Below are positions 9,471 to 28,940 of a DNA stretch of 64,000 nucleotides, one piece after another (the first letter of the stretch is position 1; each line of letters starts with the position of its first letter). The position numbers and the translations under genes are program-made. The notes below the pieces were generated by a model. That model saw only the letters and a program-made list of their open reading frames with translations. It had not been told where the DNA came from and did no database searches. Location: positions 37,176-101,175 of the forward strand of contig JBEKKX010000002.1 of NCBI GenBank assembly GCA_050010515.1, given 5' to 3'. The stretch comes from Candidatus Bathyarchaeia archaeon. Its GTDB lineage: Archaea > Thermoproteota > Bathyarchaeia > Bathyarchaeales > Bathycorpusculaceae.

Positions 9471-10055
9471 TTAAGCCAAATTTCTTAGAACATATTCAAC
9501 AGGGAAAACCTGAAGCTGACGCCCATTGACTTCTAATTCTTTTGAAGTTGAGAAGCCTCTTTTCTCCCTGCCTAAGAGCTCAAGTTTAACTTTCAAGCCT
9601 CCACCATAACCTCCTAGCGTAAAATCGGATTTAACAACTCTGTGGCAGGGAACGATTGGTGCAAAAGGATTAGCCGCCATAACGTTTCCCACAGCCCTTG
9701 GTCCACCACCTACCGCTTTGGCAATTGAGCCGTAAGAAGCCACATAACCGAGTGGAATCTCGACAGTTGTTTTAAGCACTTTTTGTGTGTAAATTGGCAA
9801 ACGAGTCAAGGCTAACGAGAAGCTTGCGTTAACATTTTGTCCCTCATAAATACTCTTCAAAGAAGCAAGAGTGTTTTTGGCGAAAGCCGAGGGCTCATGG
9901 AAAACCTGAAAAGATACGTTGAACGGTATATTTCCTAAAATGTTGCTTAATGTTAATTGTTGGCTTACACCAAAGGATGATGTTACAATCTGCTGTTGAG
10001 CATAGGCTACTCCGAACCAAACGCCGCCAATGTTTTGAGTATAAATTTCTATCAT
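9471..10055 (-). CDS. ogt: methylated-DNA--protein-cysteine methyltransferase
   Basis: PRAVG, NPFAPIVPCHRVV active-site motif. Confidence 0.95.
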   Translation of the reverse strand: MIEIYTQNIGGVWFGVAYAQQQIVTSSFGVSQQLTLSNILGNIPFNVSFQVFHEPSAFAKNTLASLKSIYEGQNVNASFSLALTRLPIYTQKVLKTTVEIPLGYVASYGSIAKAVGGGPRAVGNVMAANPFAPIVPCHRVVKSDFTLGGYGGGLKVKLELLGREKRGFSTSKELEVNGRQLQVFPVEYVLRNLA

Positions 10056-10391
10056 TTGCCTTCCTTTTACAACTTACATAGAGACAGAGTCCAAGAGGGG
10101 CTACTCCCTAATTAGCATAGTTAAAAAACATGCGGTATGTTAAAAGTTTCTGCGGTAAAAGCTTATTTTGCTTTGCATTCCATATAAACAGCCACTAACT
10201 TAACATTCTTAATTGCTTCTGGAATTCAGTAAGCCTTTTGCAAGCACGGTTAGGTAACCGATTAGTTTTCCCCATTTATTCACTTTCCAGAGGTTAGACT
10301 CATCATATTTAGTCGCCTTGCCTGTCATAGAATGGTTATAAGTAAGCTTAATAGATTGTTTTGTGTATAACAACGGGAAAAGGCGAAAATT

Positions 10392-11078
10392 ATGGAAGGA
10401 TACGGACCACAACTACCGCAAATACCACAAATCCCACAAATGCCACAGATGCAAGATCCATCACAGCAAGCTCAGCAAGGCGGCTACGCTTGGATTCCAG
10501 GCGCCACTACAGTTGGCGTTGTCTTCTCAGACGGAGTACTCTTAGCTGCTGAAAAAAGAGTAACATACGGTTATTTCATTATGAGTAAAGGCGGAAAAAA
10601 AGTATTCAAAGTAACCGACCGAATCGGCGTTGCATGCGCAGGGCTTGTTGGAGACATGCAAATTCTCGCTAAAGAAATGGAAGCGCAAGCTAATCTTTTC
10701 AGCATGGACACTGGCAGAAAAATCAGCGTGCGCTCAGCAGCAAAACTTATGGCAAACGTCCTCTTCAACCGTCGATACGCACCATTAATTACTCAAACAA
10801 TTGTCGGCGGTTTAGATGAAGAAGGCCCATCGCTTTTCGTGCTTGATGTTTTAGGCTCGCTTATACCTGATAAATACGCAGTAGTGGGTTCAGGCACAGA
10901 AATAGCCATAGGTGTTTTGGAAGAAGGCTACAAAGAAAGCATGAACGCAGAAGAAGCGAAAGAACTCGTGATGCGTTCTATAAAGTCAGCAATAAGCAGA
11001 GATTCAATGAGCGGCGACGGCATTGACTTCCTTATTATAACTAAGGAAGGCGTAACTGAAGAAGCTGTAAAGTTTTAA
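10392..11078 (+). CDS. psmB: proteasome subunit beta
   Basis: GATTVG, AAEKRVT, GSG, SRDSMSGDG motifs; Q/P-rich propeptide. Confidence 0.95.
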   Translation: MEGYGPQLPQIPQIPQMPQMQDPSQQAQQGGYAWIPGATTVGVVFSDGVLLAAEKRVTYGYFIMSKGGKKVFKVTDRIGVACAGLVGDMQILAKEMEAQANLFSMDTGRKISVRSAAKLMANVLFNRRYAPLITQTIVGGLDEEGPSLFVLDVLGSLIPDKYAVVGSGTEIAIGVLEEGYKESMNAEEAKELVMRSIKSAISRDSMSGDGIDFLIITKEGVTEEAVKF

Positions 11079-11158
11079 ACCAATTTTTCTTCAAATTTAT
11101 CTTCAAAGGAAGGATTCAGCGGTGCCTACGCACATGTTAGTAAGGAAAGGGATGCGTT

Positions 11159-11782
11159 ATGTCGTTTGAACTAAGCTTAGAAGAAGGAAAATTCTTAATC
11201 CAACTCGCTCGAAGCGCAGTTAACGAAAAATTGGAGAAAGGCAAAACCATTCAACCTCCAAAAGAGACTCCCAAGAAACTTTTTGAGCAATGCGGCGTAT
11301 TCGTAACTATAAGTAGTCTAAGGAACGGGGAGAAGGAGCTTCGCGGCTGCATAGGTTACCCTTACCCGACAAGTCCGCTTGTTGAGGCAGTGATTGATTC
11401 TGCCATTAATGCTGCAACACAAGACCCACGGTTTTATCCATTAACCTTAAAGGAATTGAGCAAAGTTGTTTTTGAAGTAAGCGTGCTAACGCCTCCAGCG
11501 CCTGTGGAAGTTAAGAATCCAAAGGAGTACTTGAGTAAAATTAAGGTTGGCGAAGACGGCTTAATTGTTGAAAGGGGCTTCTATCGGGGTTTGCTGTTGC
11601 CACAGGTACCTATTGAATGGGGCTGGTGTGAAGAAGAATTTCTTTGCCAATGCTGCGTCAAAGCAGGGCTTTCCCCGGACAGTTGGCTAACAAAAGACGC
11701 TAAAATATACAAGTTTAAAGCCATCATTTTTGAGGAAGAAACGCCGCTGGGCGAAGTTAAACGTGTAAACCTTAGCAAATAG
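11159..11782 (+). CDS. AMMECR1-domain protein (TIGR00296)
   Basis: GVFVT, LRGCIG, DPRF, GLLLPQV. Confidence 0.95.
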   Translation: MSFELSLEEGKFLIQLARSAVNEKLEKGKTIQPPKETPKKLFEQCGVFVTISSLRNGEKELRGCIGYPYPTSPLVEAVIDSAINAATQDPRFYPLTLKELSKVVFEVSVLTPPAPVEVKNPKEYLSKIKVGEDGLIVERGFYRGLLLPQVPIEWGWCEEEFLCQCCVKAGLSPDSWLTKDAKIYKFKAIIFEEETPLGEVKRVNLSK

Positions 11783-15155: not shown

Positions 15156-15797
15156 TTAGGTTTCCTGTTCACAGTTGCCCTTCGATTTTAAGCCTGTGGC
15201 TAAAAGGTACATTTCAGAGCTTTTAGCTCGGCTTGCCTGAGGCTTCACTATCTTAACTGTTTCAAAAAGATTCTTTGCTGTTTGGATAAAATCGTTGAGC
15301 AAGTTACCTTCAAAAACCTTAACAAAAAAGTTCCCTTTGGGCTTAAGTAGGCATTGAGCTATTTCTAATGCTTTAGTTGCTAAGTCAATTTGTCTTGCGT
15401 GGTCAACTTCCCAAACGCCAGTGATGTTTGGTGCAGCATCAGAAATTACTGCGTCCGCTTCGCGAGGCAGAAACGAGCGTATTTCCTCGACTATGCCTGG
15501 CTCAGTGAAGTCTGCAATTATTGTTCGAATGTATTCCTGCGTGAAGGGTTCGATTGGTTTTAAATCAACGCCCAGAACAAAACCGTTTTTTCCAGTCATT
15601 TTTCTTGCTGCTTGAATCCATCCTCCTGGCGCAGCGCCTAAATCCACTACTACGTCGTCTCTTTGTATGAAACCATATTTCGCGTTGGCTTGAACTAGCT
15701 TGTATGTGGCTCTGGAGCGGTAGTTTTCTTCTTTGGCTTTTTTGTAGTAGTATTCCCGTTTTCTATCTTGGATCCAAGCTTTCGGCAAGTGAATCAT
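15156..15797 (-). CDS. rlmE: 23S rRNA Um2552 methyltransferase RlmE/FtsJ
   Basis: YRSRATYKL, DLGAAPGGW, SDAAPNITG, KPQASR..SSEMY. Confidence 0.97.
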   Translation of the reverse strand: MIHLPKAWIQDRKREYYYKKAKEENYRSRATYKLVQANAKYGFIQRDDVVVDLGAAPGGWIQAARKMTGKNGFVLGVDLKPIEPFTQEYIRTIIADFTEPGIVEEIRSFLPREADAVISDAAPNITGVWEVDHARQIDLATKALEIAQCLLKPKGNFFVKVFEGNLLNDFIQTAKNLFETVKIVKPQASRAKSSEMYLLATGLKSKGNCEQET

Positions 15798-16191
15798 CCT
15801 CTTGTGTGCTTGGCGCGCTTGGACCCGCAGTAGTTGTGGCTTCTTTTCCTAAGCCGAGTATCCAATCTGTAAGTTTTGGGCAGCTTTTAGGTGAAAGTGC
15901 AGTTGTTGGGTCACACCTTTCATTGTCTGGGCAGAGTAAGCATGGGCAGTCAACGATGGTTTCTATCGATGCTGGAAGCCTTTTTGGGTAAAGCCTATAT
16001 GTCCATCTGCCTTCTTGCAGTTCTTTTTCTCTGCGGATTAGGCCTTTTTCTTCTAGTTTAATGGAGACACGTGAGCCTTCTCGGCTGCTTGCGCCTAGTT
16101 CACGCCATAAATCGGATTGAAGCACACCTTGATAGCCTGTGTTTACTACATAATGGAGTGCTTTCTGTTCAAGGTCATTACGTTTAGGCAT
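15763..16191 (-). CDS. tfeB: TFE beta subunit (RPC34-like wHTH + Fe-S domain)
   Basis: GVLQSDLWREL wHTH followed by PCLLCPDNERC...SPKSCPKLTDW 4-Cys motif. Confidence 0.8.
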   Translation of the reverse strand: MPKRNDLEQKALHYVVNTGYQGVLQSDLWRELGASSREGSRVSIKLEEKGLIRREKELQEGRWTYRLYPKRLPASIETIVDCPCLLCPDNERCDPTTALSPKSCPKLTDWILGLGKEATTTAGPSAPSTQEDDSLAESLDPR

Positions 16192-16237
16192 CTGATATCA
16201 ATCCAAATAATGCAATTAGAATATAAGCGTTGAATCC

Positions 16238-16276
16238 AGATAAAAATATGTTTCCGTAGCTGTAGCTGTAGATAAT
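16238..16276. repeat. attL-like site
   Basis: AGATAA AAATAT GTTTCC gtag CTGTAGCTGTAGATAAT. Confidence 0.75.
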
Positions 16277-16331
16277 ACATCAATTGACCCAGAATTCATA
16301 AAGCCTTTAACTTTTGAGGGGGGAATAAAGG

Positions 16332-17567
16332 ATGAGTGACTTTACGGAAGCAAATGAAGAGTGGATTCTAAAATTCGAATCTGGAAAAAATTGGATTCCT
16401 AAACTGCCAAGCCGACATACAAAACGCATTTTCATAAGAGCCTTACAGAAATACTGCCAAGCTGTCAAACAAAACCCAGATGAGCTAATCAACCTTAAAA
16501 TCGAAGGCTTGAAAGCTGTAGCAACAGAAAAGGAATTCGGAGCGGAACGACAGCTTGAAACCTACCTTAGAAACTCAGGTATGACTGACAGCGTTAAAGC
16601 TGAATCCAAGAATGCCATTATCAGCTTTTATAAACATAATTGGAGAAACCTTAACCCCAACGTTGCAAGCGATATAGAACCCCCAGAAGCTAAGAAGAGA
16701 ACCCCGACAATAGAGGATATACAAGCCCTCGATGCTAACATGACTACTTCACGGGATAAAGCGTTAGTTTGGTTTTTCCCCTCAACTGCCGTAAGAATTG
16801 AAACTTTAACTAAACTGACTAAAAGAGACCTAAAGCCGACAGGTGACAGCGAAGTTCCCTATTACATGGAAATTGAAAGCGCGAGATTAAAAGGCTCTGG
16901 AATTGGAAAATATAAAGGCATAAAGCAAATAACTTTCGTTCATAAGTTGGCATGGCAGAGATTAGAAGATTATTTTGCAGAAGCTAAACGCAAAGGCTAC
17001 AACTTAACCGATAGTTCGCCGTTGTTTATTGCATACAAAGGGCACTTCAGCAAAGAAGAAAAGAAATTAGCAGTTAAACCTAAAAGAATCCGAGTCATGA
17101 CTCAGGGAGCAATCAATCAAGTGTATGATAATGGGTCACTCTCCGCATGGAAAGATTTGGAACAGAAACGCTTTTCGCCTCATGATTTCAGAGATTTCCT
17201 TGAATCATCCCTTGAAAGTGCGGGAATAGACAAAAATCTCAGAGACCCTATGATGGCGCACAAGGTCAGGGGAGTAGATAAGCACTATTCAAGCCATGAA
17301 ATTTTGGAAATGAAAGATAAATACAAAACCGCATTGCCTTATCTGTTACCTCAATCTGTGGAGAAACTCAAAGCTGAAGCTGACAAAGTGAAAGAGGAAA
17401 ATGAGAAAAGAATTAAATTTCTTGAACAGCGACTTCTTGATAACGGTTTAAGTATCAATAAGATGCTCACAGACTTTAACCAGTTGAAAGCAACTTTTGA
17501 GGAACTGCAAAAACTGAAAGAGGAAGAGGAACGCAACAAACCAGAAAAGAAAAAGGTATGGGATTGA
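16332..17567 (+). CDS. tyrosine recombinase/integrase
   Basis: Catalytic R (TAVRIETL), HxxR (PHDFR), H (MMAH), Y (DKHYSS); C-terminal coiled coil. Confidence 0.92.
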   Translation: MSDFTEANEEWILKFESGKNWIPKLPSRHTKRIFIRALQKYCQAVKQNPDELINLKIEGLKAVATEKEFGAERQLETYLRNSGMTDSVKAESKNAIISFYKHNWRNLNPNVASDIEPPEAKKRTPTIEDIQALDANMTTSRDKALVWFFPSTAVRIETLTKLTKRDLKPTGDSEVPYYMEIESARLKGSGIGKYKGIKQITFVHKLAWQRLEDYFAEAKRKGYNLTDSSPLFIAYKGHFSKEEKKLAVKPKRIRVMTQGAINQVYDNGSLSAWKDLEQKRFSPHDFRDFLESSLESAGIDKNLRDPMMAHKVRGVDKHYSSHEILEMKDKYKTALPYLLPQSVEKLKAEADKVKEENEKRIKFLEQRLLDNGLSINKMLTDFNQLKATFEELQKLKEEEERNKPEKKKVWD

Positions 17568-17744
17568 CTAAACCCCTTTTTCCTCTTTTCTTTCTCTTCT
17601 TTTCTATGTTTTTCGAATTAAACAGTAGCTTAAAAAGCCATAAACCGACAAAAAGTCAAAAACGTACAAGGGTAGTAGGGCATAATCCCAGCCTAAAATT
17701 TTTAATGGAAAATTATTTAAACGACTTATAGCAATGCAACAATC

Positions 17745-17945
17745 ATGATAAGCATTATTGAAAATATGCTTGTAACATTGAGAGATAGAGAACTTGAACT
17801 TGCAACCCAAGAATATGCTAAACGATGCGATAAATTCACAGTTGAAACAAACGGCTTACTTCATCGTCATATTTCAGGCGTTTGCATTGTCCCCCATGTA
17901 GAAGTATCATCGAATAAAATTGCATTACAAGGCAAATACCTCTAA
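17745..17945 (+). CDS. possible small hypothetical protein
   Basis: 66-aa ORF inside the element, no motif; competes with a minus-strand ORF. Confidence 0.25.
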   Translation: MISIIENMLVTLRDRELELATQEYAKRCDKFTVETNGLLHRHISGVCIVPHVEVSSNKIALQGKYL

Positions 17946-18073
17946 ATATGCAGTCATTTATGGGTTAGTTTTATCTTTTCCATATGGCAAATCAGGTTCT
18001 TAATTCTTAATCGAAGCTATACAGATTTAAGATTGAGGGGTGAAGACCATTTAGAGGAATAGATGTAATAAAT

Positions 18074-18295
18074 ATTAACTCAGTTAACTTAAAATGCAGA
18101 GAATGTGGAAAAAACGCGAAATGGATAGTTATAGACCAAAGGTACGGCGTAGACCTCAAAGAAGTCGCCGCCGCCGCAACAAAAGGAGTAATAGCCCCCC
18201 CGTACAACCAATACTTTTACCCTCTTTGTGAAGAACATTTTAACTTCTTAAAAGAAAGTAAACCTTCCATGCATATGGATTATTATTATATTTAG
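18074..18295 (+). CDS. small CxxC...CxxH zinc-finger protein with no canonical start codon
   Basis: Open frame INSVNLKCRECGKNAKW...YPLCEEHFNFLKE...YYI*; no ATG/GTG/TTG before the finger; ATT assumed. Confidence 0.5.
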   Translation: MNSVNLKCRECGKNAKWIVIDQRYGVDLKEVAAAATKGVIAPPYNQYFYPLCEEHFNFLKESKPSMHMDYYYI

Positions 18296-18362
18296 GCTCA
18301 AATCCTAATTAAACAACTGATTAATTAAGCCAAATTGCCAAAAAAAAGAATGTTGTTGGTTG

Positions 18363-18890
18363 CTATTGAACTACAATAGTCACCAAATTACTGCTATACG
18401 TATTTCCATTGGCATCGGTAATAGTGCAATAGCCCTGATAAACTCCATTTCCAGCATTTTCATATAGGTCATTCCCATCTTCAAATTGATAGGTGACTGT
18501 ATTCGTATTAGGAAAATTAGGGTAGGAAGGGTTGAGTTGGCTTGGTGACATGTTATAGACGTTTTCTTGTCCATAACTGTAAGTGCCTGTATGGAATTCT
18601 ATGCTCTGAACAGGAGAAACATCTGATACTTGCAGAGTAAATTGAGCAGTTAAGGCTATTCCATTTCCTTGCGGTATTGTCACCGTTTGAGTGTCAGGTG
18701 TTAACGTAACAGTTGGAGAACTATTAGCGTTTGAATTTCCAGAATTGCCTACGTTATTTGCATTATTTGAATTATGTGATGACCTATCTAAAATTAGCAC
18801 TCCTACCAATGAAACAGCTAATATTACTATTATCACGACTGCCAAAATCATATATTTATTAATTCTTTTAGTTGATAATGGTTGAGCCAA
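18363..18890 (-). CDS. membrane-anchored surface protein with Asn/Ser linker and Ig-like beta domain
   Basis: N-terminal TM, NSNNANNVGNSGNS linker, C-terminal YCTITDANGNTYSSNLVTIVV. Confidence 0.75.
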   Translation of the reverse strand: MAQPLSTKRINKYMILAVVIIVILAVSLVGVLILDRSSHNSNNANNVGNSGNSNANSSPTVTLTPDTQTVTIPQGNGIALTAQFTLQVSDVSPVQSIEFHTGTYSYGQENVYNMSPSQLNPSYPNFPNTNTVTYQFEDGNDLYENAGNGVYQGYCTITDANGNTYSSNLVTIVVQ

Positions 18891-19000
18891 TTGTATAACC
18901 TCTTACCGTATGCACTATGCCTTTCTTTCAGCTTATAAGTTTTGGTTCTGGTAACTTCACGTCATACGGTTTTTTCTGTTAACTGCCGTCTGAGACAGCT

Positions 19001-19330
19001 TCAAACGGTAGGATTTTTAGGTCTGATGTCTGCGCCACATTTAGGACAGAAACTATTATCAGCGTCAATCCGACTGTTGCATTTTGGACATATAGCTAAG
19101 ACTTTTTGGGTAGATTGGGATTGGGGATAAACTATGGTGGGCGCTTGAGCTTGAGGTGGATAATTGTATATGACTTGTTTTGGATGAGGTGATGTAACCA
19201 AACCAACTATAAGCATGATAAATCCAATAAATCCGCAAAGTGCGGCAAATGGAATTAATATTATTGTTAGGAATAGAAAAATGCCAACAAACATTAGAAA
19301 AAGTCCACCAATGATTAGCCCAGCTCTCAA
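19001..19330 (-). CDS. two-TM membrane protein with C-terminal zinc ribbon
   Basis: Hydrophobic hairpin plus CPKC...FCPKCG. Confidence 0.85.
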   Translation of the reverse strand: MRAGLIIGGLFLMFVGIFLFLTIILIPFAALCGFIGFIMLIVGLVTSPHPKQVIYNYPPQAQAPTIVYPQSQSTQKVLAICPKCNSRIDADNSFCPKCGADIRPKNPTV

Positions 19331-19412
19331 ACTGATTCCCTCAGTTTGCTTTATGTGGACATTTTAAATATAAAACTTGTCATGGATATTACTTCTGATT
19401 AAAAAAGAGGGG

Positions 19413-20132
19413 TTAAGGGTTCGGTTGCTGTTGCTGTGGTTCCGTCTTAGCTTTAATAGGTATCACGTAATGCCCTTCTCGTCTTTCATTAACAACGTAT
19501 CTACCATTAAGACCCCTCATTTTCTGACCAATTTCGGCAAATTTGGAAGGGTCAAGCATTCGGTTTGGTTTAGCAATAATCAACTTAGCCTTACTGTCTA
19601 TTGAAATGTCGAGCAGATTCTTAATTTCTTCCAACTGTATGAGCGTAGGCTCGGCTAACTGTTTAAGATTTGCCTCTTCTTCTTTCGCTTGTTTTTCAGC
19701 TTCCACTTTCGCTTTTTCAGTTTCAACCTTCTCTTCTAACGGTTTGTTTTGAGTGTTATAGGCTCGGATTCTCACCACTTCACACGGGTCTTTATTTGGA
19801 AAAGCTGTAGCCATTTCTTCCGCTTCTTCAGATGGTCTGCCGAGAAGAACGTATTGTTTTACGAGTTCATTATGAACATCCTTCTTTTTCTGAGCTTTAA
19901 GCGCGTCTTGTTCTGCTTTCGTCATAGACCATTTTTTATATAACCTATCAAAAATTGCTTGTCCGTCCTTGCCTTGTTTATTCCAGAAAGCTATAAATTC
20001 GTCTTTGTGTTTCTCCATGAACTCTTTAACTAAAAAAGTAGCACTACCATAACCGCTGGGGTCAATTATTGAATCAAAACCTTCCCCTAACTCAGTTTCG
20101 AGAAATGTCGAAATACTGTGATTATTAGCCAT
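19413..20132 (-). CDS. hypothetical coiled-coil protein
   Basis: 239-aa ORF, E/K/A-rich central helix, TATA-like (minus-strand TTTATA) upstream. Confidence 0.75.
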   Translation of the reverse strand: MANNHSISTFLETELGEGFDSIIDPSGYGSATFLVKEFMEKHKDEFIAFWNKQGKDGQAIFDRLYKKWSMTKAEQDALKAQKKKDVHNELVKQYVLLGRPSEEAEEMATAFPNKDPCEVVRIRAYNTQNKPLEEKVETEKAKVEAEKQAKEEEANLKQLAEPTLIQLEEIKNLLDISIDSKAKLIIAKPNRMLDPSKFAEIGQKMRGLNGRYVVNERREGHYVIPIKAKTEPQQQQPNP

Positions 20133-20334
20133 GATTTTTTCACTTCCATTTTACTTATCTGAATACATACGATACACGACCCACATATAAACTTTTGGCA
20201 AGAAACAACATCTTCATTTAAACTTTTCCAAGCCAATTAATCAACTGATTAAATGAAATAGACAGCAAAATGTCAACGCCTCATCCATGCCAAAAAACAC
20301 AGAAATTTAACCAACTGATTAAAAAAAGCCCAAA

Positions 20335-20382
20335 AACGTCCGAACATGTGAACGTCCGAGCATATGAACGTTTTTTCATATG
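20335..20382. repeat. three tandem 16-bp iteron-like repeats
   Basis: AACGTCCGAACATGTG / AACGTCCGAGCATATG / AACGTTTTTTCATATG. Confidence 0.7.
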
Positions 20383-21088
20383 AAACACCCGACCAAAACC
20401 TAACCCCCCACTACCCACCCCCCGCACTAAGCGGGGCAAACCCCAAAACAACACCCTCTCTTCTTTTAGAACAGCCGAGAGTAAGATAGTAGATTCAACT
20501 GAGTAGATTAGGTTAGAATAGAATAGCTATGGGTAGGGAAGGGGTAAAAGGGGAAACCAATAGGCATACCCGCGCTAAGTCGTCCGACACACACACACCG
20601 CCCCCGCGCAACACACACATAACAAAAAATGATAAACAAATGCAATCATTAACCGAAAGTGTTAATCATCGAGCACCCAGAACGAACCAACAAAACAAGC
20701 ACATAGAACCCAGAAAAAGCCATGCCCATGTTTACCTTAATTCAGGAAAAAAAGATACTGCCTTGCGTTTTCATGAATCGAACTCCCCGCCTATCTGTAC
20801 CCCTGAACAACAGCAACTCCTGAGCGTCCGCCCTCGCTGGAAAAATACCCATTTTTTAAAATTTCTGGGTTCGATTTTTATGGATGGGATTCCCCATTTT
20901 ATTTGGCTTGGAAGAATTCCTTGCCCAAAATCATTTTTTGAGCAAAATCAAGGGTATGTAGCTTAAAGGCTAAATTGGGCTTGTTTTGCCAATTGAACAC
21001 GTGTTCTACAGTTATTTGGCATTTCAAGCCCAGAATAGCCTTTAAATATGGGTTTTGCATTGCTATAAACATAAACGAAGTTGGAAAA

Positions 21089-21316
21089 ATGACAGCAACC
21101 CCAGAAAAAAACCAAATAATAAAGCAACCGAAACTTAGCTTAGCACAACGCTTTAAGAAATGGCTAAATGGGGAATATTATAAGGCACCAACAAAAGAAG
21201 AAATACAAGAAGCTGAAGAGTTGGAGCAAGAAGCTAAAGAAGACGAAATAGAGGATTCGCAAGGGGACGGATTAATGAGCGAAGGGGATATTATGTTCCC
21301 TGAGGAGATTGAATAA
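21089..21316 (+). CDS. small acidic hypothetical protein
   Basis: MTATPEKNQ...FPEEIE; ATG at 21089 about 25 nt after CTATAAA; stop abuts the next ATG at 21317. Confidence 0.65.
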   Translation: MTATPEKNQIIKQPKLSLAQRFKKWLNGEYYKAPTKEEIQEAEELEQEAKEDEIEDSQGDGLMSEGDIMFPEEIE

Positions 21317-21346
21317 ATGAGCAACTTAGAAATAGCCAAAAAGCGA

Positions 21347-21385
21347 ATTATCTACAGTTGCAGAAGTGGATACAAATATGTATCC
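21347..21385. repeat. attR-like site
   Basis: ATTATCTACAGTTGCAG aagt GGATAC AAATAT GTATCC. Confidence 0.75.
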
Positions 21386-21404
21386 CTTAAAAAACTTGGA
21401 ATCC

Positions 21405-22439
21405 ATGAAAAACATGCAGAGCAAGCAGCGAAAAGATGAAAATTACTGTTTAGGCATAGAATCTTCAGCAGACGATTTTGGCGTTGGAATAGCCGCCTTC
21501 AACGGAGAAATACTCGCCAACAAATCCGACAGTTACATACCAGCAGAAGGCGGAATCCACCCTAGAGAAGCAGCAAGGCACCACTCTGAAGTTGCTGATA
21601 AAGTGCTAAGCGACGCCTTAACGGCGGCGGGCGTGAAGCCAAGTGACTTGTCGATTATTGCGTTTTCTCAGGGTCCAGGTTTAGGACCATGCTTGCGCAC
21701 AGGTGCTACTGTTGCCAGAGCTTTGGCGTCATACCTTGAGGTTCCGCTAGTGGGTGTTAACCATTCTGTGGCGCATATTGAGATTGGAAAACTAAAAACT
21801 GGCGTTGTTGACCCAGTGACCCTTTACGCTTCAGGCGGCAACACCATGGTGACAGCTTTTGAGGCTGGACGCTACAGAGTTTTCGGTGAAACCTTAGATA
21901 TTGCCCTTGGGAACTGTTTGGACGTTTTCGCTCGGGAAGCGGGTCTTAAGCACCGGAAGGGTTTGCCGCTTGGAGCTGCCGTGGAGCGGTTGGCAGCTAA
22001 TGGGAAAAGGCTGGTTTCTTTGCCGTATGTTGTGAAGGGCATGGACTTATCCCTTAGCGGCTTATTGACTGCGGCGACAGCTCAGCTGCATAGGGGCGAT
22101 TGCTGCTTGGAGGATTTGTGTTATAGTCTTCAGGAGAACGCTTTTTCGATGGTTACTGAAGTTACTGAGCGCGCGTTGGCGCATACGGAGAAGAAGGAGG
22201 TTCTGTTAACAGGAGGGGTAGCAGCCAATAAACGGTTGCAATCCATGCTTGCTGTTATCGCGGAGGAGCATGACGCACGGTTCAGTGTGGTTCCGCTTGA
22301 GTTTGCAACTGACAACGGCGCCATGATTGCTTGGACAGGCGTTTTAGCTTACAGGCACGGGGTAGTTACGCCTTTGGATGAGAGTTATGTGAAGCTGCGT
22401 TGGCGGGTGGATAAGGTGGATGTTCCATGGATACAGTAG
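21405..22439 (+). CDS. kae1: KEOPS tRNA threonylcarbamoyltransferase Kae1
   Basis: GGIHPREAA, GPGLGPCL, NHSVAHIE, SGGNT, DNGAMIAW. Start moved outside attR (ATG 21405 or 21414). Confidence 0.95.
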   Translation: MKNMQSKQRKDENYCLGIESSADDFGVGIAAFNGEILANKSDSYIPAEGGIHPREAARHHSEVADKVLSDALTAAGVKPSDLSIIAFSQGPGLGPCLRTGATVARALASYLEVPLVGVNHSVAHIEIGKLKTGVVDPVTLYASGGNTMVTAFEAGRYRVFGETLDIALGNCLDVFAREAGLKHRKGLPLGAAVERLAANGKRLVSLPYVVKGMDLSLSGLLTAATAQLHRGDCCLEDLCYSLQENAFSMVTEVTERALAHTEKKEVLLTGGVAANKRLQSMLAVIAEEHDARFSVVPLEFATDNGAMIAWTGVLAYRHGVVTPLDESYVKLRWRVDKVDVPWIQ

Positions 22440-28865: not shown

Positions 28866-28940
28866 TGGGCCGAGCCGGACTTGAACCGGCGACCTTTGGC
28901 TCGTAAAGCCAACGTCCTAACCAAGCTAGACGACCGGCCC
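28866..28940 (-). tRNA. tRNA-Val(UAC)
   Basis: GGGCCGG acceptor, TTGGC-TTTACGA-GCCAA anticodon arm, GCCGG-TTCAAGT-CCGGC T arm. Confidence 0.95.

Follow-up and report, generated by a model that had tools for sequence, protein, structure and literature searches.

The window, that is, the whole 64,000-nucleotide stretch of DNA analysed here, contains a 5,130-bp element (16252-21381) lodged between a winged-helix gene and kae1. The winged-helix gene (15763-16191, - strand), which is MarR/TFIIIC-B-block-like (Pfam PF04182, E 2.9e-5), belongs to the left host flank; a search with this flank matched 38 of 41 related genomes, and most of the same-genus matches ended at window positions 16255-16259. 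On the other side, kae1 (21405-22439, + strand; PF00814, E 5e-80) serves tRNA t6A synthesis, and its start was set by alignment by eye, in which the ATG at 21405 is kept in all nine relatives with an empty site. There, the winged-helix gene and kae1 are divergent neighbours. Nine of the ten same-genus loci examined join 16255 directly to 21370, with about 16 bp common to both flanks, and the tenth (G004) is a carrier of the same element. The empty sites define attL (16239-16255, +) and attR (21369-21385, +) and thus confirm that the att sites on which the earlier note on this DNA relied are real. These 17-bp imperfect repeats are identical at 15 of 17 positions, each has one mismatch to the host attB, GATAAAAATATGTATCC, and both contain the identical 8-bp core AAATATGT (16244-16251 and 21374-21381). 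Because attL and attR each deviate from attB at one position, the crossover is placed inside this core, giving the element its length of 5,130 bp.

The nearest tRNA genes are found at 28866 and 47882, none of them close to the element. The att core itself is an AT-rich, TATA-like box situated 26-35 nt upstream of the kae1 ATG, where it may act in the kae1 promoter, and attR keeps the box with one change. Around the core of attP, an inverted repeat was read from the sequence, with the left arm ATCTACAG (21350-21357, +) and the right arm CTGTAGAT (16266-16273, +), the latter being the reverse complement of the former; an analogous 10-bp inverted repeat surrounds the core of a second element, on contig C5. 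These inverted repeats are likely integrase-binding sites.

At the right end of the element, a 145-aa gene without a family match (20529-20966, +) reads towards attR and is followed by the last full gene (21089-21316, +), which encodes 75 aa with an acidic C-terminus and has homologues at the far end of six further elements. Searches of the cargo genes against Pfam and PHROGs were uninformative except for one zinc ribbon, a protein atlas search gave no usable match for the 239-aa protein of the element, and Rfam returned two sub-threshold matches only. An 18-nt motif, AATTAAnCAACTGATTAA, occurs three times in the intergenic regions of the element (18307-18324, 20235-20252, and 20305-20322), and two tandem 26-nt repeats with TATA-like centres are located upstream of the 145-aa gene (20171-20227); both are candidates for regulator sites and for promoters that serve the right-end genes. 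In addition, a C-rich patch with a short GC hairpin (CCCCGC...GCGGGG) lies just upstream of the 145-aa gene (20400-20445), unlike the AT-rich element.

The left end is occupied by the integrase gene (16332-17567, +; 411 aa), which is intact after integration, with the core at 16244-16251 lying 81 nt upstream. By sequence, the integrase is a divergent member of the tyrosine recombinase family. It matched PF00589 (Phage_integrase) at 15.1 bits (E 0.019), below the gathering cut-off of 27.1, and 13 of 18 integrase relatives matched the same family at E ≤ 1, the best at 9e-9. With an AF2 model (mean pLDDT 80.1), Foldseek gave 51 PDB matches at E ≤ 0.001, every match listed being a tyrosine recombinase; the top match was archaeal XerA (4a8e, E 1.3e-7), and Cre, IntI, XerH, Tn1549 Int, and the Brujita integrase were also among them. 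A profile of the integrase compared with PDB sequences likewise found XerA (E 0.0018). The model thus indicates a two-domain fold of the Xer/Cre/lambda Int type with its catalytic domain. An 18-sequence alignment contains the invariant residues R155, R287, H310, and Y319, which we take, from the order of the motif, to occupy the catalytic Arg...His-x-x-Arg...His/Trp...Tyr roles; the His of His-x-x-Arg is the majority residue, with Gln in some members. Beyond the catalytic domain, the C-terminus is predicted to form one long helix of about 60 residues (343-401; window 17358-17534), a feature that the Xer/Cre matches do not have.

An ATG at 21317 directly follows the TAA (21314-21316) of the 75-aa gene, with GGAG in the last codons of that gene, 7 nt upstream. 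When the two ends of the element were joined at the core by a script, this ATG opened a frame of 50 codons (hereafter the leader) that crosses attP and ends at a TGA (16337-16339), overlapping codons 2-3 of the integrase (position +5), whose own ATG is at 16332. The abutting ATG, the 50-aa peptide, which is identical to the one derived here, and the stop lying over the integrase start had all been described in the earlier note and are borne out. The 5' part of the leader runs from its ATG through 21 further codons to where the core ends (21317-21381, +), and in this part the window element and G004 differ by an in-frame 3-nt indel. The 3', integrase-proximal part (16252-16339, +) comprises 29 codons and the TGA, has in the window no in-frame ATG, GTG, or TTG, and contains the conserved sequences CCAGAATTC (16289-16297, read as Pro-Glu-Phe) and CTTTAACTTTT (16305-16315) as well as the Shine-Dalgarno-like GAGGGGGG (16316-16323). 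In the integrated state, the leader frame is closed at attL by a host TAA (16241-16243), the 88-nt open stretch ending at 16244; where attB and attL carry this in-phase TAA, attR and attP have TAC (21371-21373). At the right end of the integrated element, the 40-aa hybrid ORF that had been described as running into kae1 exists in the ORF list (21317-21439, +), but it overlaps the first 35 nt of kae1 (ATG 21405) out of frame; it has no Pfam family match.

A frame that stays open across attP and whose stop overlaps the next start, proposed earlier as a feature to look for in related elements, recurs throughout the family: its integrase-proximal half was found in 50 of 57 loci and the whole frame in 10 of 13 elements. 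Integrase matches were present in 45 of 120 genomes of the genus, and 99 loci were fetched (63 from metagenomes, 35 from genomes, and 1 from a viral contig). For 75 of them, the integrase alignment began at residue 1 and 125 nt or more of upstream sequence was available, and removal of upstream regions at least 90% identical left 57 non-redundant loci, whose integrases are down to 31% identical and are not near-copies. When openness was defined as at least 75 nt uninterrupted directly before the integrase start, the frame of the integrase itself was open in 3 of the 57 loci, frame -1 in 22, frame -2 in 31, and either frame -1 or frame -2 in 50 (28 in frame -2, 19 in frame -1, and 3 in both); among the seven loci without such a stretch, two were open for 74 nt. 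Dinucleotide shuffles of the same 120 nt (300 shuffles) gave a mean of 15.0 open loci (sd 3.3, maximum 26) against the 50 observed.

In all 50 loci, the open frame stops at -2 (TAGTG), +1 (NTGA), or +5, the window being of the +5 kind. Moreover, the third base of integrase codon 2 is T in all 19 frame -1 loci versus 7 of 28 frame -2 loci (Fisher 1e-7, p-values overstating independence here because the loci are related), and this T builds the +5 stop. Six loci have no TGA at +1 because their codon 2 is TCT, and all six are counted among the loci with T at the third base. In a quick maximum-likelihood tree of 47 integrases, from which ten sequences shorter than 250 aa had been dropped, the two frame classes changed 11 and 13 times, and well-supported branches force no fewer than 7 and 10 of these changes, respectively. 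Repeated switching of frames with openness kept is a stronger argument than the p-values. These results show that the open frame up to the integrase start is more than chance.

The integrase start codons across the 57 loci include 32 TTG, 10 ATG, 8 GTG, and 1 CTG, and a Shine-Dalgarno-like motif stands 6-13 nt before the start in most loci. In-frame GTG and TTG codons are not depleted in the left part of the leader (31 of 50 loci versus 61 of 100 for the other frames), and a hybrid start from such codons in the integrated state may therefore occur. We also observed that codon 4 of the integrase is ATG in most of the 57 loci, the kae1-site clade being without it (window 16341-16343 region), and that a TATA-like CTTTAAC is placed 26-32 nt before codon 1. 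Such an arrangement would be compatible with another way of expressing the integrase, from a transcript with a short leader.

Both ends were identified for 13 elements with six different cores; two of the six att sites (the kae1 site and that of the contig C5 element) are confirmed by empty sites, and four rest on direct repeats only. At the kae1 site, elements with both ends comprise those of the window, G004, G077, G115, and G090, together with a sixth, L074, that is decayed. The others are the contig C5 element from the window's own genome (14-bp core, with four empty sites in relatives), two elements next to a thermosome gene assigned by eye from the start of the gene (20-bp core), L086 (18-bp core), G121 (16-bp core, extended to 32 nt by comparison with L104), L093 (a 12-bp repeat only, which may be chance), and L092 (a 1.46-kb remnant). 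The exact direct-repeat search missed the att site of the window itself, with its 8-bp core, and many loci accordingly remain without a defined right end.

An ATG-started ORF crosses attP to the integrase start in 10 of these 13 elements, and the leader phase matches the far-end ATG for five of the six different cores. Counted from the ATG next to the preceding stop, the leader is 44-58 codons long, or 27 codons in G071, where the ATG after the last gene is out of phase and a shorter ORF crosses attP, ending in a TAGTG stop/start overlap with its stop at -2. The leader ATG is within 0-7 nt of the preceding in-frame stop in 6 of the 10 elements, and a match of at least 4 nt to the Shine-Dalgarno consensus occurs at -20 to -3 of the leader ATG in 8 of 9 elements versus 22% of random positions. 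The three elements without an ATG before the core are L074, in which attR is mutated, L092, which has a frameshift, and L093.

The contig C5 element (G000 contig C5:43185-47868; loci L002 and L084) is 4.7 kb long, and its integrase is about 48-51% identical to that of the window; it carries homologues of the 239-aa and 75-aa genes, and its leader crosses attP and stops at integrase +1. A mini-element of 1.46 kb (L092/L150 in G075, 9912-11385) contains the integrase, the frameshifted leader, and a short gene homologous to the 75-aa gene, and nothing else. The element family targets AT-rich, promoter-like intergenic DNA, not tRNA genes, as seen at kae1, L143, L151, L086, L160, and, by eye, the thermosome site. 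The kae1 site is a hotspot, occupied in different genomes by six or more elements with lengths of 5-10 kb. At L166, a 34-bp direct repeat (9802-9835 and 16467-16500) flanks a locus with a truncated relative of the integrase; by eye, the repeat resembles a tRNA gene end, and tRNA targets may therefore be used in some branches of the family.

The sequencing runs holding the stretch were all DNA contig sets from peat and wetland metagenomes. The Logan contigs of X4, X11, X9, and X5 (window 15800-21800) contained no joint of the right end to the left end, which is uninformative either way, as contigs drop rare forms. At no locus was the integrase immediately preceded by a homologue of the 75-aa gene, and a terminal repeat was found in 0 of 63 metagenome loci. 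In four runs, the summed contig depth of the element was below that of the flanks (about 4-6 versus 190-370 in X11), the flanks also recruiting other strains, and loose ends at 16255 (X5 and X11) and 21369/21370 (X5) continue as the other flank, as unoccupied sites would. The dominant strain of X9 has a different insert at the kae1 site, another mini-element with about 1.8 kb of other sequence between window 16378 and 21339. Locus L104, considered as an attP form, was rejected, being integrated at the same site as G121, and the long upstream open frames of L144 (793 nt) and L165 (430 nt) appear to be chance frames antisense to host genes. Among viral contigs, a single-protein scan was empty, and a profile scan gave one distant match (25% identity) that was set aside.

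We consider the chances slightly better than even that the leader is an ORF with an unimportant peptide, split by integration, which couples translation of the integrase to the right-end genes only in the circle. Insertion of the element by a divergent tyrosine recombinase into the AT-rich, presumptive promoter region of kae1 is part of the same explanation, which, taken as a whole, is the best one and somewhat more probable than not. On this reading, attP lies inside a short leader ORF of about 45-58 codons, with the ATG and the first approximately 20 codons at the right end directly after the last gene, and with the last approximately 28 codons at the left end, where the stop coincides with the integrase start or falls a few bases from it (NTGA, TAGTG, or +5). 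The leader ORF is therefore complete only in the excised circle, in which it joins the 145-aa gene, the 75-aa gene, and the integrase in one co-directional chain of abutting or overlapping genes. Of the translationally coupled operon that had been proposed for the circle, it is the structure that stands, with the integrase as the last cistron of a packed, overlapping chain; the coupling is a prediction, as are the right-end promoter, the recombination-controlled switch, and the driving of kae1-bud32-rdgB by the integrated form that had been suggested along with it.

With transcription presumably running across attP, ribosomes that terminate on the leader would reinitiate on the integrase start codon, in most loci a weak one (TTG/GTG), with the assistance of the Shine-Dalgarno-like motif that the leader contains. 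Integration splits the leader, thereby parting the integrase from the leader start and the upstream genes and pointing the right-end genes, which may read on, into kae1. Selection would keep the open frame and its end point, not the peptide; because only openness would be selected, the leader should tolerate new att sites, provided that the core brings no in-phase stop, and the element family would be free to move to them. A strong Shine-Dalgarno-like motif of its own could also allow the integrase to start independently, the dependence on the leader ORF being suggested by the arrangement of the sequence. More tentatively, and with somewhat less than even confidence, we propose that this Bathyarchaeia element family senses its recombination state by translation, such that the integrase would be licensed only with an intact attP, the leader delivering ribosomes to a weak start.

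Alternatively, the leader stretch might be untranslated, its lack of stops being a side effect of inherited DNA constraints such as the inverted repeats, the att core, the TATA-like box, and the Shine-Dalgarno-like motif. Conserved DNA motifs (CCAGAATTC, CTTTAAC, and GAGGTGA) do occur in the region, inverted repeats surround the cores, and the peptide is poorly conserved, all as expected from such constraints. Composition is insufficient, however, to account for the counts (15 of 57 loci in shuffles versus 50 observed), and the other frames are closed, that of the integrase being open in only 3 of 57 loci and both non-integrase frames together in only 3. Moreover, the frame has stayed open through no fewer than 7 switches of class and covaries with the codon-2 base of the integrase from which its stop is formed, and the phase matches the far-end ATG for five of six cores. 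We therefore regard an untranslated stretch as unlikely.

A switch operating in the reverse direction was also considered, in which the integrase would be made mainly in the integrated state, from the kae1 TATA-like box at attL and by way of its own ribosome-binding site or the codon-4 Met on a short-leader transcript, the leader in the circle serving to dampen the integrase. Consistent with this, attL retains host sequence to the end of an AT-rich box (16240-16249) directed towards the integrase, and the Shine-Dalgarno-like motif 6-13 nt before the start in most loci, the common codon-4 ATG, and the CTTTAAC 26-32 nt before codon 1 would all suit such expression. Nevertheless, the open frame and its stop at the integrase start are left unexplained, a promoter directed at the integrase is not obvious at the other att sites, the kae1-site clade has no codon-4 ATG, and the promoter assignments were all made by eye, so that this reverse arrangement appears rather unlikely.

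The frame across attP might instead encode a small accessory protein made only by the circle, for example an integration factor, with the peptide itself being functional. A precedent is given by SNJ2, in which, according to the accessible text of PMC5861418, two small ORFs overlapping and co-transcribed with the integrase are needed for integration and not for excision. The leader N-termini resemble one another in style, Met being followed by Ser, Thr, or Asn and after that by polar residues, and both frame classes read CCAGAATTC in one phase, as Pro-Glu-Phe, so that the one-base indels must lie between CCAGAATTC and the integrase start. Yet these indels shift the reading frame of conserved DNA near the integrase start, and the peptide is not conserved across the six cores, its middle being dictated by the host att site and wholly different among them. 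Among the close kae1-site elements, most leader differences change the amino acid, as judged by eye, and the 40-aa hybrid ORF of the integrated state, as noted, matches no family. A functional peptide is thus, in our judgment, quite unlikely. Finally, a chance alignment of about 50 stop-free codons in this one element, a worry raised in the earlier note and understandable for short frames in AT-rich DNA (per-frame background for 75 nt of about 5%, 3 of 57), is very improbable in view of the family-wide counts (50 of 57 open versus 15.0 in shuffles), the covariation, and the phase matching among integrases down to 31% identical.

The proposed assembly of a leader by recombination can be set beside several known systems. 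Recombination state sets the expression of recombinase or transfer genes in Tn916, by read-through across the joint, in IS911 and IS30, by junction promoters, and in lambda, by sib retroregulation; these act by transcription or RNA decay, whereas reassembly of a translated leader, in archaea, is proposed here. The mycobacteriophage repressor is subject to loss of a degradation tag. In the integration-dependent immunity of these phages (BPs, Brujita, and Charlie), as described in the accessible text of PMC4557955 and PMC3694055, attP likewise lies in a gene by the integrase, and the free and integrated products differ. That system is bacterial, however, and the split gene is a repressor that loses its 3' end, whereas the frame described here is upstream of, co-directional with, and overlapping the integrase and has no conserved peptide, although its peptide may conceivably play a regulatory part.

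Closer to the present case are the SSV-type ("suicidal") integrases of fuselloviruses, pTN3, and TKV, for which the available parts of PMC7253208 and PMC8371274 describe an attP inside a coding frame that is whole only in the circle. In the SSV type the integrase itself is split and tRNA genes are targeted, whereas here the integrase is intact (16332-17567), a leader of about 50 codons is split, and the element family targets AT-rich intergenic regions. An integrase gene that is intact when integrated is a likeness to the pNOB8 type at the level of the state of the gene. In SNJ2 of the haloarchaeal pleolipoviruses, small upstream ORFs overlap the integrase, as here, and are co-transcribed with it, affecting integration more than excision; according to the same accessible text (PMC5861418), they are intact in the provirus, which targets a tRNA-Met gene, whereas in the present element the att site cuts the small ORF.

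The predicted coupling itself has a counterpart in Haloferax volcanii, for which the accessible text of Huber et al. 2019 (PMC6728339) reports strict termination-reinitiation coupling at such overlaps in 9 of 9 gene pairs, with an internal Shine-Dalgarno motif that modulated the coupling and did not replace it. As in 50 of our 57 loci, the frames of those pairs are co-directional, overlap by 4 or 1 nt or stand a few nt apart, and have a Shine-Dalgarno-like motif in the upstream frame (PMC6728339, accessible text). The Haloferax pairs are permanent neighbours, whereas here recombination would assemble and dismantle the upstream partner, the coupling being predicted from the layout. The open-access main text of work on Bathyarchaeia integrases and proviruses or on archaeal integrase types, as far as available, contains no account of a recombination-assembled leader ORF ending on an integrase start, and the accessible text of the 2021 review of archaeal tyrosine recombinases (PMC8371274) makes no mention of Bathyarchaeo- names, of translational effects, or of upstream open reading frames. 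None of the systems compared here (SSV-type integrases, mycobacteriophage immunity, SNJ2, and Tn916 and IS elements) has a recombination-assembled leader whose peptide is unimportant and whose end falls on the integrase start.

The elements described here constitute a previously undescribed family of small size (1.5-10 kb), with a new divergent integrase family, in a widespread class of uncultured archaea, and they target promoter-like intergenic DNA by essential genes such as kae1. To our knowledge, little has been established about the means by which archaeal elements govern when, and in which direction, integration proceeds. If the proposed mechanism is true, a leader that excision builds and integration destroys would turn the integrase off once the element has integrated, with no need of a repressor, and the weak integrase start codons would be explained. 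The usable att sites would also be constrained to those without an in-phase stop, a constraint that the window fits, with TAC in attP and TAA in the host site. This would amount to a new rule tying site choice to gene expression and to the first translational recombination switch described in archaea. Production of the integrase may thus depend on whether the element is integrated, which can be tested with simple reporter constructs.
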